Under the pieces are notes generated by a model that saw only the letters and a list, made by a program, of their open reading frames with translations, made no database searches and was not told where the DNA came from. From assembly GCA_001772335.1 (NCBI GenBank), contig METM01000021.1, positions 127,440 to 164,385 on the forward strand: a stretch of 36,946 nucleotides of DNA. The letters run 5' to 3'. Shown here in pieces: positions 1 through 11,267 of this stretch; within the stretch, counting starts at the first letter, position 1; each line of letters opens with the position of its first letter. A program made the translations under genes and the position numbers. The stretch comes from a candidate division WOR-1 bacterium RIFCSPHIGHO2_01_FULL_53_15 (GTDB taxonomy: Bacteria; Margulisbacteria; WOR-1; O2-12-FULL-45-9; XYB2-FULL-48-7).

Positions 1-208
1 TCTGGACCGGATTCGTTTTTGGATCCGGATTGACTTTTCTTGCTTCGGCGATTGATTTTTCCAACATGTTTTCAATCTCCGGCTTCTTCTCCACTAGATT
101 CATGAGTTCCCGGGTTATCGGTTTATGAATGTTTGCCGCAAAACCAGTGCTTGCGGTTAGAATCAATCCTGCCAGTATTATGGCTAAACAAAATTTTGCC
201 TTTCTCAT
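1..208 (-). CDS. N-terminal part of a secreted protein, probably phosphatidylserine decarboxylase family (runs off window edge)
   Basis: Manual translation from ATG at 208 (SD AGGAG upstream): MRKAKFCLAIILAGLILTASTGFAANIHKPITRELMNLVEKKPEIENMLEKSIAEARKVNPDPKTNPVQ. Sec-type signal peptide. The SI..A..NPD..TNP.Q segment resembles, from recall, the N-terminus of signal-peptide-bearing PSD-family proteins. Catalytic part is outside the window. Confidence 0.6.
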   Translation of the reverse strand, partial: MRKAKFCLAIILAGLILTASTGFAANIHKPITRELMNLVEKKPEIENMLEKSIAEARKVNPDPKTNPVQ

Positions 209-224
209 TTTTCGTCTCCTTATT

Positions 225-1280
225 CTAACGATTTAATATTTCCTTTAGTTTATTGATATCGCCTTTAGTATACGGCAAGGCCAGCATTAAGAGAAGGCGT
301 GCCTTTGGGGAGATAAGGTCGCCAGCCAAAATAGCCCCCTCTTTTTCCAGTGTAGCCCCGCCACCCGCACCACCATAAATAGGTAAAACTGCCCCATGAT
401 AGACACGGCTGGTTATGACCACGGGGATACCTTTCTTTAAGGCGTATTTTATGGCCTCATAGGTCTTGGCATTAACATTACCAGCGCCCACGCCTTCGAC
501 CACGATTCCATTAACTCCGGAGTCTACGGCGTAGCGTAGGAGTCGGCCATCTGCTCCTGCATACTCAGAGATTAAAACAACATTCGGTAATTTTTCCGGC
601 AGGGGAAGTTTTTGCCTGCGCAAGGCATCATTAAAACGATATACCTCGCCCATAGCAATATAGCCCAAATAACCTTTTTCTCCCGAGTTAAATGTCTGCA
701 CATTGGTGGTCTGTGTCTTTCTTACATCTCGGGCGGAGCAAATATATTGATTCATGGTAACGGTTACTCCCCAGTCCTGCGCTACTTTTGAACAAACCTG
801 GGTAACAGCATTTAATATATTTGCCGGGCCGTCAGGAGAAAGCTCAGAAGCATCCCGCATCGCCCCCACAAATACCACAGGCTTATTGCTTTTAAGCGTC
901 AGTTCTAAAAAATAGGCCCCTTCGGCCATAGTATCCGTGCCATGGGTGATGACGACCCCGCTGACTTTGGGATCTTCTAAAATACCATCTACGGCTTTAC
1001 TGAGTTTTGCCCAAATATCAGGCGTTATCTGCGAGCTGTCGATATTGGAAAAATTCACCACTTTTATATTAGCTATCTTCGAAAGCCCCGGCACCGCTTC
1101 TATCAAATCTTTTCCGGATACTGCCGGTACCGCAGCGCCGGTTTTTGGGTCTACTTTTTCAGCAATCGTTCCGCCGGTAGTTACTATAGTTACATTGGGC
1201 AATTCTGCTTGGGAATAAGAAAACCCGCTAAATATAACGGCAAAAACAATCAAAAATACAATCCGCATTTTAACCTTCAT
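225..1280 (-). CDS. ansB: Secreted L-asparaginase (type II / glutaminase-asparaginase family)
   Basis: TGGTIA and HGTDTM catalytic motifs, VFVGAMR, DGPAN, N-terminal signal peptide. Confidence 0.92.
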   Translation of the reverse strand: MKVKMRIVFLIVFAVIFSGFSYSQAELPNVTIVTTGGTIAEKVDPKTGAAVPAVSGKDLIEAVPGLSKIANIKVVNFSNIDSSQITPDIWAKLSKAVDGILEDPKVSGVVITHGTDTMAEGAYFLELTLKSNKPVVFVGAMRDASELSPDGPANILNAVTQVCSKVAQDWGVTVTMNQYICSARDVRKTQTTNVQTFNSGEKGYLGYIAMGEVYRFNDALRRQKLPLPEKLPNVVLISEYAGADGRLLRYAVDSGVNGIVVEGVGAGNVNAKTYEAIKYALKKGIPVVITSRVYHGAVLPIYGGAGGGATLEKEGAILAGDLISPKARLLLMLALPYTKGDINKLKEILNR

Positions 1281-1289
1281 TTCGTCTTT

Positions 1290-1667
1290 TCACCTCTTGG
1301 TGCTTGTATAAGAAGAGAAGAGGTTCAAGTCAAGCTTCTCCGAAATATGGCGGACGGCTTTCTGCGCCCGGACGCTGTTTCCGGCTGCGTCGAGCGGAGG
1401 AGAAAACGCGGCAATACCCATGACCCCCGGAACCACGGCTATGATTCCGCCCCCGACCCCGCTCTTCCCGGGCAACCCAACATAGAACAACCACTCGCCG
1501 GTGCCATCGTAGAGGCCAGCCGTTGACATGACGGCAAGGATTCCGGGAACATAACGCGCATCCACCAATCGATCCTTCGTCCACGGGTTGACTCCGCCGT
1601 TGGCGAGCGTTGCCGCCACAAGCAGCCGGATGGCGAAACTCCCGTGCAGTGGCCGTCTATTCAGCAT
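1290..1667 (-). pseudogene. glsA: Glutaminase (GlsA) C-terminal remnant fused to an unrelated ~15-aa start
   Basis: AATLANGGVNP...GLYDGTGEW...VGLPGKSGVGGGIIAVVPG.MGIAAFSPPLDAAGNSVR is the GlsA C-terminus. Only 125 aa, and the N-terminal SxxK catalytic region is absent. Confidence 0.85.
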
Positions 1668-1672
1668 AGCAA

Positions 1673-1700
1673 ATTATATTCCCCTATGCGAAAAAATCAA
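1673..1700 (-). promoter_or_regulatory. Sigma70-type promoter upstream of the glsA remnant and asparaginase
   Basis: TTGATT-N16-TATAAT, 5 nt before the ATG at 1667. Confidence 0.5.
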
Positions 1701-1711
1701 GACATTAAAGG

Positions 1712-1840
1712 GTCGGCAACAGCAACATTTCATCGGCTTACCGGAAAGGTTTGATCGAAGTGGAAGGCAACGCCCGGCACCTGATCCAGATCGGCCGCAA
1801 GAGCTTGCTGATGCAGTTCATCACCCCATTCGGCGGTTAG
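1712..1840 (+). pseudogene. Start-less 3' gene remnant (42 codons), weakly SCP2-like
   Basis: Reads VGNSNISSAYRKGLIEVEGNARHLIQIGRKSLLMQFITPFGG*, with coding-like third-position GC. In-frame TAA just upstream, and its stop overlaps the stop of the convergent PSD gene. Confidence 0.3.
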
Positions 1841-2937
1841 CGCTTTGCCGCTATACCGATCTTTTGTTTAACTTTAATCGGTATGCCATCATCTCCGGTT
1901 TTCCTGGCGGGAAAAGGTTGGGTAAATTTAATGGTCCCGGGCTCGAAAATCAACAGGATTGAAGAACCCCCGTATTCAAAATGGCCCAGCTCCTCACCTT
2001 TTTTGATATAATTGCCAACTTTTACTTTTGGTTCAGTTACAATTGACCCAACACTCCAAAAACCAATAGGGATCATTGCCACCAAGCCAAATTCTTTAGT
2101 TTCAATGATATAACAAGACCGTTTGTGTTTTGCGAGATCCTTGTACCAGTTTACATTTTTAAAATTATAATTATAGGAACCGGCATATTCGCCTACTCCG
2201 ACAATCTTGCCGGATACGGGGGCGTGAAAGTGGTGATAGTCAGTGAACCACAACAGGATATCCAAAACCGGCCCGCCGATGAATCTGTCGGCATAGATAC
2301 TGTTGTTAAGAGCTTGCCGGATATTAATTACATCTCTTTTGATTTTAAAATTCACGTCCAGATCTTCTGCGTAGATTTGGCAGATGCTGCCGTCTGCTGG
2401 AGACACGATGACAGAAGGGTCTTTCTCTTCGTCAAGCGGTCTGGCTTGAGGCTTAACCGGTCTTAGGAAAAATTCATTAAACGTTTTAAAGCCGCCTTTA
2501 GGCACAATATAATCATCCATTTTTACCAGTGAGCTGGACATCCACTGACCCATGGTCGCGGCTGAAGCAGGGGTGCCCAAGTACTCTCCATTGGCGTTAA
2601 CAAAGGCAATGAACCATGAACTGAAAATATTATTGTTGAAGAGAATTTCTCCTGCTTCTGAATTAGCGAGCTCATCAAAAGGCATAATATACTTTGCCGG
2701 CGCCTCCGGAACAGGATTATAAACCAGCCATTCCTCAAAGAACTTTACGAAATCACCGCTGGTTTTGTTATGCCAATAGGACTTTTTATCCTGGAGCTTC
2801 AAGGACTTATCAATTTGCGCTTTCAGATCGGGCGTGCTGTCGAGCAATTCTTTCAAGTTCTGGACAATGTTTGCCTGGCCATACACGCAATTGAACGAAA
2901 AAATCAACAAAAGCAAAATGAACGCAAGCTTTTTCAT
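1837..2937 (-). CDS. Secreted phosphatidylserine-decarboxylase-family pyruvoyl enzyme
   Basis: FKTFNEFFLR, IVSPADG, DYHHFHAPVSG, KKGEELGHFEYGGSS (autocleavage site). True start MKKLAFILL at 2937 with SD GGGGAGG, followed by a signal peptide. Confidence 0.88.
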   Translation of the reverse strand: MKKLAFILLLLIFSFNCVYGQANIVQNLKELLDSTPDLKAQIDKSLKLQDKKSYWHNKTSGDFVKFFEEWLVYNPVPEAPAKYIMPFDELANSEAGEILFNNNIFSSWFIAFVNANGEYLGTPASAATMGQWMSSSLVKMDDYIVPKGGFKTFNEFFLRPVKPQARPLDEEKDPSVIVSPADGSICQIYAEDLDVNFKIKRDVINIRQALNNSIYADRFIGGPVLDILLWFTDYHHFHAPVSGKIVGVGEYAGSYNYNFKNVNWYKDLAKHKRSCYIIETKEFGLVAMIPIGFWSVGSIVTEPKVKVGNYIKKGEELGHFEYGGSSILLIFEPGTIKFTQPFPARKTGDDGIPIKVKQKIGIAAKR

Positions 2938-2950
2938 GGTTTGCCTCCCC

Positions 2951-3595
2951 TTACTTCTTTGCCGGCAATGGATCGGGATAAATAAAATTAATGAAACCCA
3001 GCGCCGCCAAAGCGACCCCATAGTTCTTTTCGATATTTAATGAAGTAATGTTATACTTCATTTCTCCCCTTTGTTTCAGCCCCCGAATGCTCAATTCATG
3101 ATTGAGAGATTTTTTTAATTGTGCAGCGGCATCCTTTTTAGCAGTTTCTGCATCAATCTTTTTCTGGCTGTAAATCCGCTCGTATTCCGCGGCGAAACCA
3201 CCAATGAATTCCCCCTTGGCGTTAATTGCCCAAACCCTGCCGATTCCTGCTGACACCGTATCGCCTTTTACTCCGCCGGCTTTTGCCAAAATTGCCTCTA
3301 AAACCGTTCCATGATGAAAATTTTGCTTAACCGATTCTATGGGAACCTCATATGACTCAGGGGGAAGAACCGAAGTGTAATACATGACATTAAAATTCTC
3401 TATGCCCGCAGCCTGAAGCGCCAGATCGTAGGAAAATGTTTCGTAGGGATCGGGCGGAATCCCCTGATCAGATTGGCCGGTGCCGGTAGTGGCAATATAG
3501 GCCGTGGGAATTCTTGGCCCAAATTCAGAAACAGCAAAAACCGAATTGGGCATCAATAAAACGATGCCCAAAACAATCATCAATGCCTTTTTCAT
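2951..3595 (-). CDS. aaxB: Pyruvoyl-dependent arginine decarboxylase (chlamydial AaxB type) with signal peptide
   Basis: G.G.SD.G.PP.PYETFSYDLAL..AGIENFNV..YTSVLP (T|S cleavage site), GGFAAEY, SLNHELSIRGL. Start MKKALMIV at 3595 with SD AAGGAGG. Confidence 0.85.
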   Translation of the reverse strand: MKKALMIVLGIVLLMPNSVFAVSEFGPRIPTAYIATTGTGQSDQGIPPDPYETFSYDLALQAAGIENFNVMYYTSVLPPESYEVPIESVKQNFHHGTVLEAILAKAGGVKGDTVSAGIGRVWAINAKGEFIGGFAAEYERIYSQKKIDAETAKKDAAAQLKKSLNHELSIRGLKQRGEMKYNITSLNIEKNYGVALAALGFINFIYPDPLPAKK

Positions 3596-3623
3596 CTTTT
3601 TTGCCTCCTTCTTTCTGGAAAAA

Positions 3624-3651
3624 ATTTTACCACTTCTCTCGAACTTGTCAA
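3624..3651 (-). promoter_or_regulatory. Sigma70 promoter of the decarboxylase cluster
   Basis: TTGACA-N16-TAAAAT with extended -10 TG, 28 nt upstream of the aaxB-like ATG. Confidence 0.7.
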
Positions 3652-3660
3652 GGATTGATG

Positions 3661-4971
3661 GGCTCTTCAGCAAACAGTGTGCCAAATTAAACCCCCTAAA
3701 TAGGCAATGGGAATAAAGGCCAGCATCATTTTTCTGATGTAGACTTGGACGTTGCGAAAACCATAGCTTTGTCGTTTGATCATTTTGATTTTGGTGTGTG
3801 CGCCTTCTGTAAACGCATTGGTAGTTTTGCTGATAAAATAATTCAAGATATACATCCGCCAGCGTTTTAAGGTATTGCCCCACTGATTAATCGCCGCGTC
3901 ATCACTGCATTCCATGTTCAAAATAATTCTGGACAACAGAGTCACCGCTTCTTCTCTGGTTTTGGCTTTGTAAAACAACCTTAACTGTTCCTTGAAATAG
4001 TAAAAGGATTTCAGCTCGGGATACCTCTTGAGGAGATCGTCCAGCGCTTGCTTCTCCCAGCCCCTAAGGTTTTCCCTGCCTTTGATAAACCACCAGCGTT
4101 TGCCGATATGCTTGCGGCCTTGCATTTCCTGCTCCAACCGCCGGGCTTCTCCAAGACGACGATTAGCGTCTTGGATAACATGAAAATGATCCACCACAAT
4201 ACTGGCCCCGGGAAGCTCTTGTTCAAGCGCCGACCTGAACAACTCCTTCATATCAATGCAAACTTCAGAAATATTGCGTTTAATGGGCTTGGGCACAGCC
4301 CTAAGCCATTGCCTCAAGCTGGCCTGGCGGTCGTCAGGCAGAATGGCCTTAAGCCTTCTCTGTGACAAATTGGTGATGGTAATGACCAGATCATTTCCTC
4401 TGAAGCTATGCTCGTCAACTCCCAATTTAATCCTCTTCAGCTTTTTTTCTTCCTGCCAGTTTGGCTCAGTATCAACCTTGGCCAGTAAATAACGCGCTTC
4501 GTGATCGCTGATCCCATTCTCCACCCGTAACTGCCGGAAACTTTTCCCCTTCAGTAAATTCAACAGTTGATATTCCGCTGTTTCCGTCTTCCGGCTCCAT
4601 TGTTTCAATCCGGGCCATTGTTCCGTAAACGGTTTGCCGCAGCGCGAGCACTGCCAACGGCTCTTTCGGCCCTTGAGATAAACAATCCTTTCTCCCCAGA
4701 GATGGTGTTTTACCAATCTCAGCCTGCCAGCCTGGTGGCAATAATCAGCTTTCTTGCCACAGCGCGGACAACACCGGTGCTTTTTCTTTAGTTCAACTTC
4801 AATTTCGATGGCCTTCGGCTGGAGGATAATTGCGCGGATCCAAAATGCTTGCAGTCCGAAAATTTTTGCGATATCATTTTTCATGTGGTAGGCTCCTCTC
4901 TTTTTTGCGAAAGATAAGGAAAACCTACCACATTTTTATCTAATTATTGGCACACTCTTTGCTATAGAGCC
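3661..4971 (-). mobile_element. Complete ISL3-family insertion sequence (1311 bp)
   Basis: Terminal IRs GGCTCTTCAGCAAACAGTGTGCCAA (3661-3685) and 4947-4971, matching 22/25. Flanking direct repeat GGATTGATG at 3652-3660 and 4972-4980. Confidence 0.95.
3667..4884 (-). CDS. ISL3 family transposase
   Basis: CPRCG/CSRCG zinc finger, LGVDEHSF, VCIDM, VVDHFHVI, TNAFTEGAHTKIKMIKRQSYGFRN. Confidence 0.95.
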   Translation of the reverse strand: MKNDIAKIFGLQAFWIRAIILQPKAIEIEVELKKKHRCCPRCGKKADYCHQAGRLRLVKHHLWGERIVYLKGRKSRWQCSRCGKPFTEQWPGLKQWSRKTETAEYQLLNLLKGKSFRQLRVENGISDHEARYLLAKVDTEPNWQEEKKLKRIKLGVDEHSFRGNDLVITITNLSQRRLKAILPDDRQASLRQWLRAVPKPIKRNISEVCIDMKELFRSALEQELPGASIVVDHFHVIQDANRRLGEARRLEQEMQGRKHIGKRWWFIKGRENLRGWEKQALDDLLKRYPELKSFYYFKEQLRLFYKAKTREEAVTLLSRIILNMECSDDAAINQWGNTLKRWRMYILNYFISKTTNAFTEGAHTKIKMIKRQSYGFRNVQVYIRKMMLAFIPIAYLGGLIWHTVC

Positions 4972-5030
4972 GGATTGATGTAAAGCAATTGTTTAATAAG
5001 GAAATGGATCCAGCCACTATTTCCGGGCAA

Positions 5031-5243
5031 TCATGACACGCTGTTGACTGCGGCCATATTTAAAAAAATAATTCCCAATATCGAATGGCGCGGGGAAGGC
5101 AGCGCCTTTAACAGTTTTTCAATTGCCTGATGAATGTGATAAATGATTACATCCGCATGGCCTTTTTGTTTGATCAACAGGCTTGCGGTGTCGGCATCAT
5201 GGGAGGCTAAAATCAGCCATTCCTTGATATCAATTTCGCTCAT
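5031..5243 (-). pseudogene. HEPN-domain protein, truncated
   Basis: EWL..A..D...A...YHIHQAIEKLLKAL is a typical HEPN N-terminal half. Similarity stops after ~48 aa. Overlaps the upstream MNT gene. Confidence 0.75.
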
Positions 5244-6347: not shown

Positions 6348-6436
6348 GAATTAATTATAACACAGTTTTTCTGCGAGAATTGAGCTTGATTGTCAACCGT
6401 TTGAGGCGTAAAATCCGATCATTCGGAGTGAGAAGA

Positions 6437-6892
6437 ATGAAACAACGCATCACCGCATCGCTGGCCTTAACTTTAGTATTGATATTCTTTGAGCAAACTG
6501 CCTTTGCCGCGGCGATCGCCACGAAGGCCGGCAAAACATTTAACATCACCCTGGCCTCAAATCCTACCACCGGTTACAGCTGGCGGATCGACGGATCGTT
6601 CGATAAGAGCATCGTTAAACTCCTGGGATCAAAATACGAGCGCCCCAAAACTTCATTGATCGGAGCCGGCGGCCGAGAGATCTGGCGCTTCAAGGCGCTC
6701 AAGCCGGGCAAGACGGCTATTAAGTTGAAATACGTCCGACCATGGGAGAAGAATACGCCGCCGGCGGAAAGACGCAGTTTCGAAGTCAAGATCAGTAAAG
6801 TTTATATCCAATCTGCAGGCGAAGGGTGCCGCTGGAAATATAATCGATCCCGGTTTCAAGGAAGAGCTCTTCCCGCCCGTAAATCTTGTTGA
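6437..6892 (+). CDS. Chagasin / I42 family cysteine protease inhibitor, secreted
   Basis: L.SNPTTGY.W, IGAGG.E.W.F.A, Y.RPWE motifs. Signal peptide from ATG 6437. Confidence 0.9.
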   Translation: MKQRITASLALTLVLIFFEQTAFAAAIATKAGKTFNITLASNPTTGYSWRIDGSFDKSIVKLLGSKYERPKTSLIGAGGREIWRFKALKPGKTAIKLKYVRPWEKNTPPAERRSFEVKISKVYIQSAGEGCRWKYNRSRFQGRALPARKSC

Positions 6893-8566: not shown

Positions 8567-9229
8567 CTATGTCTTGTGGGTAATGTCGAGGTCGAGCTTT
8601 TTGAGGGAATCGTCGCGACCGAAGAGGACTAGCGTGTCGTCTTTCTCGACCACCATGCTCCAGGCGGGGATGACGAGGTTCTCGTCGCCGCGGCGCACCG
8701 CAAGCACCGTGATATTGAACTTGTTGCGCAGGTCAAGGTCGGAAAGCGGCTTGCCGACCCAGTTCTTGGGCGCCTTGGTGCCGACTATCGTGACGTTTTG
8801 CCCGATGTCAAAATAATCCATGACCCCCTGGCTGGTCAGCTGATTCACTAATTTGATCGCCGTATCCTGTTCAGGGAAAACGATCCGATCCACCCCGAGC
8901 TTGGTCAGGATCTGGCCGTGGACGGTATTATGCGCCTTGCAAATGACGGTAGGGACCCCTTTGCTTTTTAGGATCTGTGCGGCGATGATGTTGCTCTCCA
9001 TGTTCGTGCTCTCGGCTACGATAGCAGTGTCGCACTCAAATACTTTCGCGTCTTCGAGAATCGCCTCGTCGGTGATATCACCAGCGAAGGCGCGGGTCAC
9101 CTCGTCCTTGATGCCGGCGATGACCGCCGGATCCTTGTCAATGGCGATCACTTCCTGCTTCTTGTAATATAATTCCCGGGCGACTTTACTGCCAAAACGA
9201 CCGATCCCCAGCACAGCGTATTTTTTCAT
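8567..9229 (-). CDS. ktrA: TrkA/KtrA family K+ uptake regulatory (RCK) protein
   Basis: MKKYAVLGIGRFG Rossmann motif, LG.D..VFPE, C-terminal RCK_C. Start at 9229. Confidence 0.9.
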   Translation of the reverse strand: MKKYAVLGIGRFGSKVARELYYKKQEVIAIDKDPAVIAGIKDEVTRAFAGDITDEAILEDAKVFECDTAIVAESTNMESNIIAAQILKSKGVPTVICKAHNTVHGQILTKLGVDRIVFPEQDTAIKLVNQLTSQGVMDYFDIGQNVTIVGTKAPKNWVGKPLSDLDLRNKFNITVLAVRRGDENLVIPAWSMVVEKDDTLVLFGRDDSLKKLDLDITHKT

Positions 9230-9272
9230 AATGCCAGCATTATATATTAAATTGTGGTAAAATTCCAACTTA

Positions 9273-11267
9273 ATGCGCAAGAATATTTTTCGAAAGATCA
9301 AAGAGTTCACCATCGGCAAGGCGCGCAACCCTCTCGACCAGTCGGTTTTTCACAACATCTCGCTAGTCGCCTTCTTTGCCTGGGTGGGGCTGGGGGCGGA
9401 CGGCATCTCGTCATCCTCCTACGGCCCGGCTGAAGCATTTATCAACCTCGGCAAATATCATTATCTCGGCCTGTTAGTGGCGCTGGCCACGGCCGTCACC
9501 ATTTACATCATCAGCGAGAGCTATTCGCAGATCATTGAGCTTTTCCCGACCGGCGGCGGCGGCTATATCGTGGCCAGCAAGCTCCTGGGGCCGCGGATCG
9601 GCATGGTCTCGGGCTGCGCGCTTTTGATCGATTATATTTTGACGATCACGATCTCGATCGCCAGCGGCGCGGATGCCGTCTTCAGTTTCCTGCCCGCGGC
9701 CTGGCTGGGCTACAAGCTGTGGTTCGCCGTCTTTGCCGTCCTCTTCATGATCATCCTGAATCTGCGGGGGGTCAAAGAGTCGGTGACCATCCTCATGCCG
9801 ATCTTTATGGCGTTCATCCTGACTCACGCTTTTATTCTTCTTTACGCGATCTTGAGCCATGTCCTCAATTTGCCGATGGTGATCAGCGCGACTGCGGCCG
9901 ACATCAGAGAATCATCCGCCAATTTGGGCATTTTCGGCATGCTATTCCTGATGATGAGGGCTTTCAGCCTGGGGGCCGGAACCTTTACCGGCATTGAAGC
10001 GGTCAGCAATAATTTGTCCATTCTGCGGGAGCCGAAGGTCAAGACCGCGAAACAGACCATGAGATACATGTTCATTTCTTTGGCTTCGATCGTTCTTGGC
10101 CTGATGTTCGCTTACGCTTTTTACGGGGTCGAGCCGCAATACGGCAAGACGCTAAATGCCATATTATTTGAAAGGGTGGCCGGCGGCTGGGGCGATTGGG
10201 GATATTTGTTCATTCTTCTGACGCTGATCTCGGAAGCGGCGATCCTTTTTGTGGCCGCGCAGACCGGCTTCCTGGGCGGGCCGAGTGTTTTGGCCAACAT
10301 GGCGGCCGACCGCTGGATCCCAAAAAGATTCGCCCTCCTCTCCGACCGCCTGGTGACGCTGAACGGCATTCTGATCATGGGGGTGGGGGCGACGCTCGTC
10401 ATGATCGGGACGCGCGGCTCGGTCGGCCTGTTGGTGGTGCTCTACAGCATAAATGTTTTCATCACTTTCTGCCTTTCCCAGCTTGGTATGGTGCGGCACT
10501 GGCTGCAGGTCAGGCAGAACGAGGGGAAATGGCGGGGAAAATTCGCCATCAATGGTATCGGGCTGGTCCTGACGACTTTTATCCTCATCTCGGTTTCGGT
10601 CATGAAATTTCACGAGGGCGGCTGGGTCACTCTCTTTATTACTGGGCTTCTCGTCGTTTTTGCCTTGATCATAAAGGCGAGTTATGAGCGGACAGACCGG
10701 CTGATCCAAAAACTCGATTCGGTCGTGACCGAGGTCGAAGCGAGCCAGCCGGTGCCGCAGATCCCTGTCCGGCCGAAGAGTGAAAAGTTCAGCCAGCTCG
10801 ATAAAACCGCGATCATCCTGGTCAAGGATTTTACCGGCGCGGGGCTCAAGACGATCTTCAATATCTTCCCGGCCTTCGGGAACGATTATAAGAATTTCGT
10901 GTTCGTCCAGGTCGGCCTGATCGACGCGGGCGCTTTCCGAGGCACGGCCGAACTGGATAGGGTCAAGAAAAAAGTTGACAACGAATTGAACCGCTATATT
11001 CACCTGATGCAGAGGCACGGCTATCACGCCGAAGGCCACGCCCTCTTCGGGATCGACACCGGCGAAGAGATCGAGAAATTTTCGATCGAGATAATGAGGC
11101 GGTTCCCCAAAGCGACATTCTTCGGCGGGCAGATCGTCTTTGAGCGCAGTTCCATAATGTCGCGCCTGCTCCACAACTACACGCTCTTCTCCGTCCAGAA
11201 AGACCTCTTCAAGCGGGGCCTGCGCCTCTATGTCCTGCCGATCGAATTGAGCCACTCAACCCACTAA
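9273..11267 (+). CDS. APC-family permease, KimA/YdaO-like K+ transporter
   Basis: ADGISSSSYGP.E, SY.QI..LFP.GGGGY, LLIDYILT, NLRGVKES, TGIEAVSN, C-terminal soluble domain. Confidence 0.85.
   Translation: MRKNIFRKIKEFTIGKARNPLDQSVFHNISLVAFFAWVGLGADGISSSSYGPAEAFINLGKYHYLGLLVALATAVTIYIISESYSQIIELFPTGGGGYIVASKLLGPRIGMVSGCALLIDYILTITISIASGADAVFSFLPAAWLGYKLWFAVFAVLFMIILNLRGVKESVTILMPIFMAFILTHAFILLYAILSHVLNLPMVISATAADIRESSANLGIFGMLFLMMRAFSLGAGTFTGIEAVSNNLSILREPKVKTAKQTMRYMFISLASIVLGLMFAYAFYGVEPQYGKTLNAILFERVAGGWGDWGYLFILLTLISEAAILFVAAQTGFLGGPSVLANMAADRWIPKRFALLSDRLVTLNGILIMGVGATLVMIGTRGSVGLLVVLYSINVFITFCLSQLGMVRHWLQVRQNEGKWRGKFAINGIGLVLTTFILISVSVMKFHEGGWVTLFITGLLVVFALIIKASYERTDRLIQKLDSVVTEVEASQPVPQIPVRPKSEKFSQLDKTAIILVKDFTGAGLKTIFNIFPAFGNDYKNFVFVQVGLIDAGAFRGTAELDRVKKKVDNELNRYIHLMQRHGYHAEGHALFGIDTGEEIEKFSIEIMRRFPKATFFGGQIVFERSSIMSRLLHNYTLFSVQKDLFKRGLRLYVLPIELSHSTH

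Follow-up and report, generated by a model that had tools for sequence, protein, structure and literature searches.

To our knowledge, the pyruvoyl-dependent arginine decarboxylases (PvlArgDC) characterized so far, archaeal PdaD and chlamydial AaxB, are all cytoplasmic enzymes that serve either polyamine synthesis or arginine:agmatine exchange. Here we describe a gene that probably encodes an exported member of this family, located on the minus strand at 2951..3595 of a 36,946-nucleotide stretch of DNA (hereafter "the window") from the candidate division WOR-1 bacterium RIFCSPHIGHO2_01_FULL_53_15 (GCA_001772335.1; contig METM01000021.1, positions 127,440 to 164,385). In passages of the paper on the chlamydial AaxABC system (PMC2720952), AaxB (C. 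pneumoniae CPn1032) is a protein of 195 amino acids that cleaves at Ser53, carries Gly115 and Trp128, has an acid optimum of pH 3.4 and a Km of about 5 mM, and acts between the outer-membrane porin AaxA and the inner-membrane antiporter AaxC. The window protein shares the PF01862 domain with AaxB and comparable landmarks (~193 amino acids in its predicted mature form versus 195; Thr-Ser at mature residues 53/54, counted after leader removal, versus Ser53), but is set apart by its predicted Sec leader; AaxB acts within the cell.

Three further systems frame the comparison. The PvlArgDC of M. jannaschii (PdaD; PDB 1mt1, 1n2m, 2qqd) resembles the window protein in fold, in its cleavage serine and in the equivalents of Asp35, Asn47 and Glu109, but is only 23% identical to it, has a Ser-Ser site and 165 amino acids, lacks a leader and is a cytoplasmic, biosynthetic enzyme. 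The pyruvoyl histidine decarboxylase HdcA of Lactobacillus 30a (PDB 1pya) shares the serinolysis mechanism and, distantly, the fold (Foldseek E = 0.12), and differs in Pfam family, substrate and its location in the cytoplasm. A functional precedent for arginine decarboxylation outside the cytoplasm comes from E. coli SpeA, which passages of a second paper call "mostly periplasmic" and acting on external arginine (PMC11968103); the conversion of external arginine before uptake was, according to the same passages, proposed long ago for this enzyme. SpeA is nevertheless not homologous to the window protein, having an unrelated fold and a pyridoxal phosphate (PLP) cofactor.

Family, active site and predicted leader of the decarboxylase

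The open reading frame (ORF) comprises 214 codons and a stop (3595..2951, minus strand), and its translation contains every peptide quoted in a preliminary description of this DNA: the leader MKKALMIVLGIVLLMPNSVFA, FGPRIPTAY, TGTGQSDQGIPPDPYETFSYDLAL, AGIENFNV and YYTSVLP. PF01862 (PvlArgDC) matched residues 29 to 202 across the entire model (positions 1 to 161 of 161; E = 7.7e-27, 94.6 bits against a gathering cutoff of 22.7), which is far beyond chance. Among PDB sequences, M. jannaschii PvlArgDC was the only true relative (E = 4e-4). Structural comparison led to the same enzyme: an AlphaFold model derived from an alignment of 116 sequences had a mean predicted local distance difference test score of 96.2, with residues 2 to 20 forming a separate helix, and the top 12 Foldseek matches in the PDB were all chains of M. 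jannaschii PvlArgDC (E = 8e-12 to 3e-4; best matches 2qqd and 1n2m, E = 8e-12, template modeling score 0.82, 23% identity), with pyruvoyl histidine decarboxylase far lower in the list (probability 0.99, E = 0.12).

Alignment placed D35, N47, S53 and E109 of the M. jannaschii enzyme on D57, N69, S75 and E137 of the window protein, and its Ser52-Ser53 cleavage site on T74|S75 (codons at 3376..3371, minus strand). Across the 116 aligned sequences S75 and N69 never varied and E137 was conserved in at least 90%, and the D-N-T-S-E pattern recurred in 16 of 16 close family rows and in all eight full-length near representatives examined (P0122 to P0129). The Asp35 equivalent (D57) is kept, with His at that position in a more distant leaderless group. 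From the alignments to the M. jannaschii enzyme and to the AaxB-like protein P0409, cleavage would yield a predicted beta chain of residues 22 to 74, ending at T74 (3374..3532, minus strand), and a predicted alpha chain of residues 75 to 214 (2954..3373, minus strand), which would open with S75 as the pyruvoyl group and contains E137, the Glu109 equivalent. The earlier identification of a pyruvoyl arginine decarboxylase with a Thr-Ser cleavage site is thus borne out by both the family score and the alignment.

Residues 1 to 21 (3533..3595, minus strand) have the form of a Sec-type signal peptide, with an MKK n-region, a hydrophobic core and a c-region ending in VFA, and a predicted cut before V22. 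By a rule-based heuristic, the leader of the window protein (P0001) had a hydrophobic window of 3.41, a net charge of +2 and a -3/-1 site at VFA|VSE, and its core was short (~12 residues). To establish how far these properties extend through the family, they were scored in the best 120 of 343 near-length homologues (209 to 251 amino acids, 63 to 100% identical to the query) that had been found at E ≤ 1e-3 among 1046 candidates; this set comprised P0001 and 119 others and left out P0002, a shorter call of the same gene. Among the 120 homologues listed, a hydrophobic core (a 10-residue window with a Kyte-Doolittle mean of at least 1.9) occurred in 119, a net positive charge before that window in 115, and a small-residue -3/-1 pattern between the core and the conserved mature start in 119, with a loose lipobox pattern in 17; the median leader length up to the conserved R-I-P anchor was 31 residues. 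Mean pairwise identity was 0.25 in leader columns versus 0.72 in mature columns. Across many phyla, then, the putative leader is conserved as a property and not as a sequence in 119 of these 120 proteins, and some family members appear to carry lipoprotein or twin-arginine-like leaders instead. The leader is also a clean N-terminal addition, since the leaderless 194-amino-acid protein P0409 aligns end to end with the window protein from query residue 24 (its residue 2 to its last residue against query residues 24 to 213, 49% identity).

Upstream of the ATG at 3595, a Shine-Dalgarno sequence (AAGGAGG, 3604..3610, minus strand) lies at a distance of 8 nucleotides, preceded by a promoter-like site (TTGACA, a 16-nucleotide spacer and a TG-extended TAAAAT; 3624..3651, minus strand), identified by its match to the consensus only. 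At 11 of 12 matching positions, this site scored highest in a sigma-70-like scan of window positions 1..5200, although the match alone is weak evidence because the scan returned 10 sites where 7.5 were expected from shuffled sequence. Both positions agree with the translation start that the preliminary description had favored on the same grounds. A terminator-like hairpin of 10 base pairs followed by a T-run lies within the leader-coding region (3546-3571, minus strand; approximately codons 9 to 20 including the T-run); terminator-like sites as a class showed no excess (5 found, 6.5 expected in shuffles).

Phylogenetic position relative to AaxB

A search for family representatives returned 315 proteins at E ≤ 1e-3, of which 150 were combined with 16 close family members into an alignment of 166 rows. 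A quick tree of the mature domain was built from the 105 near-full-length rows, leaving out 61 rows in which under 150 of the 179 core columns were filled. In this tree the query and 33 other rows formed a clade with 99% support in the Shimodaira-Hasegawa-like approximate likelihood ratio test (SH-aLRT). Leaders of one kind or another were recognized in 27 rows of this clade (20 Sec-like, 3 lipoprotein-like and 4 twin-arginine-like), and the seven leaderless rows included two long forms with an incomplete N-terminus and a junk long branch; outside the clade, 62 of 71 rows had no leader. A careful tree of 72 hand-chosen rows, among them 11 full-length leaderless proteins found with P0156, split the exported group from the mostly leaderless rest with support of 100/99. 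The preliminary description had argued that a cleavable leader would define a secreted subfamily; mapping leaders onto the phylogeny recovered such a putative subfamily in both trees, and its leader properties recur in 119 of the 120 homologues listed.

In both trees the nearest leaderless neighbor of the query is the AaxB-like clade, which was supported at 100/100 in the careful tree. Its members have 193 to 204 amino acids, share all motif regions with the window protein and are, at their nearest, 49% identical to it over query residues 24 to 213; T52-S53 and G115 fell at exactly those positions in 7 of 12 inspected. The likeness to chlamydial AaxB proposed in the preliminary description therefore stands in part: the published landmarks and the identity to AaxB-like proteins favor it, but no chlamydial name appeared on the leaderless AaxB-like clade among the 120 of 610 proteins listed in the search with P0156 (the names there were Candidatus Avelusimicrobium, Elusimicrobiaceae and Lichenicola), so that "chlamydial" reflects the published landmarks.

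Within the careful tree, the AaxB-like rows, the rows with twin-arginine-like leaders and a small number of further leaderless rows formed a 97/96 clade, which sat among Sec-leader rows where the backbone was weak (36 to 56). An approximately unbiased (AU) test did not reject a tree in which the 20 Sec and lipoprotein rows form one clade (p = 0.242). Given that weak backbone and this test, the AaxB-like proteins would be placed in the unrooted tree either as a sister group of the exported forms or as a branch inside them. The twin-arginine-like leaders belong to a sister subclade of four proteins (P0132, P0184, P0192 and P0195) with the motif R-R-x-F/V-L/V; the Pfam TAT_signal model was not significant on any of the four (best E = 0.26), and the label denotes motif inspection only.

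Gene cluster, low-GC island and fusions

On the minus strand, the promoter-like site is followed by the decarboxylase, a phosphatidylserine decarboxylase (PSD)-like enzyme, a glutaminase fragment, an asparaginase, a second PSD-like enzyme and a PF13557 channel. The first PSD/PsiD-like enzyme (366 amino acids; 1837..2937, minus strand; PF02666, E = 3.9e-39) has its own leader and a GGSS motif, and its start lies 13 nucleotides past the decarboxylase stop in a gap that holds GGAGG; the two genes are probably in one operon. The glutaminase fragment (1290..1667, minus strand) covers only Pfam model positions 186 to 286 of 286, with no N-terminal part upstream, and is probably the remnant of a gene once present in the cluster. 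It is followed by a type II asparaginase with an N-terminal leader (225..1280, minus strand; translation and Pfam) and by the leader-bearing N-terminus of the second PSD/PsiD-like enzyme (425 amino acids, GGS motif; 1..208, minus strand), which runs off the start of the window and continues at L002:11371-12648. The outer-membrane channel gene (PF13557, minus strand; Pfam) lies beyond it, outside the window. Each intact enzyme of the cluster (both PSD-like proteins and the asparaginase) has a leader-like N-terminus, as does the channel. The two PSD-like enzymes are PF02666 paralogues, 32% identical to each other. Among PDB sequences the second is closest to E. coli PSD (E = 1e-14), with weaker matches to PsiD-like L-tryptophan decarboxylases (E = 6e-11 to 4e-8), and the two paralogues may decarboxylate amino acids as soluble enzymes instead of acting on lipids.

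These partners set the locus apart from AaxABC, in which the gene for a cytoplasmic enzyme lies between those for an outer-membrane porin and an antiporter: here the operon has no antiporter, an outer-membrane channel gene is in the cluster, the other partners are exported PSD/PsiD-like enzymes and an asparaginase, and the comparison at the protein level was made with AaxB-like proteins that are unnamed. An APC-family permease is encoded 5.7 kb from the decarboxylase on the other strand, outside the island described below and not in the operon. It forms part of a segment (window 8567-11267, native-GC DNA, partly on the other strand) that encodes a TrkA-domain protein and this 664-amino-acid amino-acid permease. 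At the edge of the island there is also a chagasin-family peptidase inhibitor with a leader-like N-terminus (PF09394, E = 1e-30; window 6380-6892, plus strand).

The cluster lies in an island of ~10 kb with a guanine-plus-cytosine (GC) content of 39 to 48%, versus 51 to 59% in its flanks (about L002:9000 to window 7000); a single 1-kb bin of the island, over the glutaminase fragment, reached 51%. An ISL3-family transposase gene (3667..4884, minus strand) is located in the island directly upstream of the decarboxylase, and nucleotidyltransferase/HEPN pairs are found near both ends. The host genome (1.56 Mb, 85% complete) has one copy of the decarboxylase, and neither this gene nor its PSD-like partner (the second enzyme) had a match in the 40 relatives searched. 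Horizontal acquisition of the island is the simplest reading.

To establish the distribution of the decarboxylase, one genome per species was scanned, which gave 29 loci at 58 to 74% identity. These came from Desulfobacterota, Thermodesulfovibrionales, Omnitrophota, Thermotogae, Bipolaricaulia and a Micrarchaeota-labelled metagenome-assembled genome (MAG), from Gastranaerophilales, Bacteroidetes, Chlorobium and Zixibacteria, and, for the rest, from bacteria whose records say no more than Pseudomonadota, Proteobacteria or "bacterium"; cultured carriers among the homologues listed include Desulfovibrio aminophilus and Salidesulfovibrio onnuriiensis. PSD-like genes were adjacent or fused at four of the 29 loci (L004, L005 with two copies, L006 and L015). 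A universal conserved partner gene was ruled out, as the two ORFs on each side were mostly unrelated across 28 loci. The 107 neighboring ORFs at these loci included peptidase C69 (3 loci), PF00144-family hydrolases (2 loci), protein-arginine deiminase (1 locus) and M14 carboxypeptidase (1 locus). The deiminase is of eukaryote type (PF03068, E = 5e-126) and is encoded directly upstream of the putatively exported PvlArgDC in a Gastranaerophilales MAG (L022:920-3061, plus strand). An Omnitrophota cluster (L015:4473-13964) combines an aspartate-decarboxylase-like aminotransferase, an Asp-Al_Ex exchanger, a putatively exported PvlArgDC, a peptidase C69 and a PSD-like gene, and its asparaginase is 68% identical to that of the window.

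Longer proteins numbered 12 at E ≤ 1e-3 among 4202 candidates. Four of them (P0412 to P0415; 610 to 624 amino acids) are PF01862 + PF02666 fusions with one N-terminal leader each; one, from Sulfurovum sp. NBC37-1, is annotated as phosphatidylserine decarboxylase. Fusions of this kind occur in Sulfurovum and Thermodesulfovibrionales. At L004:4287-6155 (plus strand), a single ORF of 622 amino acids runs from the leader through the PvlArgDC domain into an orthologue of the second PSD-like enzyme of the window, with 77% identity to the latter from residue 24, exactly where the leader of the partner ends; the partner's own leader is missing at the junction. The junction at L006:7977-9317 (plus strand) is the same, and the frame breaks there after ~446 amino acids. 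That a single leader carries both domains argues that they share an extracytoplasmic compartment and are functionally linked. The other eight longer proteins are forms of 387 to 479 amino acids. Long forms P0124 to P0128 and P0416 to P0420 span this same range, P0124 appearing N-terminally truncated. In the three inspected at full length (P0126, P0128 and P0416), an N-terminal transmembrane helix and a domain of ~200 amino acids precede PvlArgDC; this extra domain had no Pfam match.

Proposed function and competing explanations

We consider it likely that the gene encodes an AaxB-like PF01862 proenzyme with a cleavable Sec signal peptide, which cleaves itself and converts arginine to agmatine outside the cytoplasm. 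The proposal builds on family membership, fold, catalytic residues, the properties and conservation of the leader, operon order and fusions, all observed at the level of sequence or model. The unfolded chain would be exported through Sec and cut by signal peptidase I after VFA21; the mature chain of ~193 amino acids would then fold outside the cytoplasm and split itself between T74 and S75, leaving an alpha chain whose first residue, S75, is turned into the pyruvoyl cofactor. The mature enzyme would convert periplasmic L-arginine, its presumed substrate, to agmatine and CO2, consuming one proton per turnover. A cofactor made from the protein itself suits an enzyme that folds outside the cell because PLP is not easily loaded there. 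The gene would belong to a horizontally acquired module of exported amino-acid-converting enzymes, comprising the two PSD/PsiD-like proteins, the type II asparaginase and the outer-membrane channel. The most probable role, and the least certain step, is to convert amino acids outside the cell before they are taken up and/or to serve as a periplasmic proton sink; the latter idea fits the pH optimum of AaxB, which is acid (3.4) according to PMC2720952.

Polyamine synthesis in the cytoplasm is probably independent of the exported enzyme, since the same genome separately has an AdoMet_dc-family gene without a leader and, immediately downstream of it, an agmatinase-like gene of the arginase family (L032:1483-2961, minus strand, contig C22); the pair may represent a cytoplasmic route of a SpeD-type arginine decarboxylase and an agmatinase. 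Spermidine synthase was not found in the host genome (85% complete).

Several points weigh against this proposal. The window protein scored only 42.7 bits against a cutoff of 207 for NF009064 and 42.1 bits against 106.95 for TIGR00286; scores so far under the NCBIfam equivalog cutoffs place it on a divergent branch, and that standard does not confer equivalence of function to the characterized enzymes. Arginine is suggested as the substrate by 49% identity to AaxB-like proteins that are themselves uncharacterized and by the conserved Asp (the Asp35 equivalent), which we take to be arginine-binding. Agmatine deiminase was not found in the host genome, at 85% completeness, and decarboxylation outside the membrane offers no obvious energy gain. 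No gene for an AaxC-like antiporter is adjacent here, and an amino-acid permease domain was found in none of the 107 neighboring ORFs of the 28 related loci. Neighborhoods are variable, with a PSD-like partner in only 4 of 29 loci. Finally, the leaders were called by our own rules (hydrophobicity, n-region charge and -3/-1 pattern), and the AaxB-like exported branch is known here from sequences and models alone.

The strongest competitor keeps fold, export and self-cleavage as described and changes the substrate from free L-arginine to another amino acid, or to an amino-acid moiety that is carried by an envelope molecule and keeps its amine and carboxylate free, processed in tandem with the PSD/PsiD-like partner. 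It draws on the wide margin by which the NCBIfam equivalog cutoffs were missed, on the repeated adjacency or fusion to PSD-family enzymes, whose solved relatives include decarboxylases of a lipid (PSD) and of a free amino acid (PsiD-like, tryptophan), and on secreted-type peptidases nearby (C69 in 3 loci, the PF00144 family in 2, M14 in 1). Nonetheless, we regard it as unlikely: all motif regions are common to the AaxB-like clade at 49% identity, the Asp35 equivalent is kept where the more distant leaderless group has His, and the pyruvoyl chemistry requires a free alpha-amine and alpha-carboxylate, which narrows the candidates. A much less probable explanation is that the hydrophobic N-terminus is an uncleaved signal anchor, tethering the enzyme to the outer face of the cytoplasmic membrane. 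In relatives of 437 to 479 amino acids, a transmembrane helix at the N-terminus and an extra domain do precede PvlArgDC, and the leader heuristic is blind to cleaved versus uncleaved forms; but the core is short (~12 residues), like that of cleaved leaders, the small-residue -3/-1 pattern stands just past it and just ahead of the conserved mature start in 119 of the 120 homologues listed, and some members have a lipobox-like pattern instead. It is scarcely credible that translation starts downstream at M15, making the protein cytoplasmic and the hydrophobic stretch untranslated 5' sequence, for although codons 6 and 15 are in-frame ATGs, the public call of the identical product (P0002) begins at M6 and the hairpin with its T-run falls within the leader-coding region, AAGGAGG precedes M1 while neither M6 nor M15 has a Shine-Dalgarno sequence, the frame stays open, leader-like properties are kept in 119 of the 120 homologues listed despite 25% identity, and the fusion proteins retain the same leader.

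A broader evolutionary scenario can be put forward only tentatively, and we think it rather doubtful as a whole. Cytoplasmic AaxB of Chlamydia and its kin would descend from the exported lineage by loss of the leader, an idea that arises because, in the careful tree, the group around the AaxB-like clade otherwise consists of branches with Sec or twin-arginine-like leaders; the AU test, however, leaves a separate Sec-leader clade standing (p = 0.24), and the tree is unrooted. In the same scenario, exported PvlArgDC and exported PSD/PsiD-like enzymes would constitute an undescribed two-enzyme pyruvoyl module that operates outside the cytoplasm with no external cofactor, exists as a single-leader fusion in Sulfurovum and Thermodesulfovibrionales, and spreads horizontally among anaerobes and small-genome bacteria.

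Proteins of the putative exported subfamily are already in public databases, labelled pyruvoyl-dependent arginine decarboxylase or, for the fusions, phosphatidylserine decarboxylase. A full-text literature search whose coverage excluded most subscription journals turned up no description of a pyruvoyl arginine decarboxylase that is exported. To return to the proposal of an exported AaxB-like enzyme, pyruvoyl arginine decarboxylase chemistry is probably not confined to the cytoplasm: with export signals present in a large clade that spans phyla, amino-acid decarboxylation would be placed in the periplasm, a compartment that pyruvoyl enzymes fit by making their cofactor from their own polypeptide. 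The recurrent fusion to PSD/PsiD-like domains flags a second family of putatively exported pyruvoyl enzymes. Were the enzymes of the clade active, anoxic sediments, groundwater and gut-like habitats would be places where agmatine, and perhaps further amines, is made extracellularly, a simple proton-consuming reaction would take place at the cell surface, and the chlamydial AaxB system would gain a testable origin.

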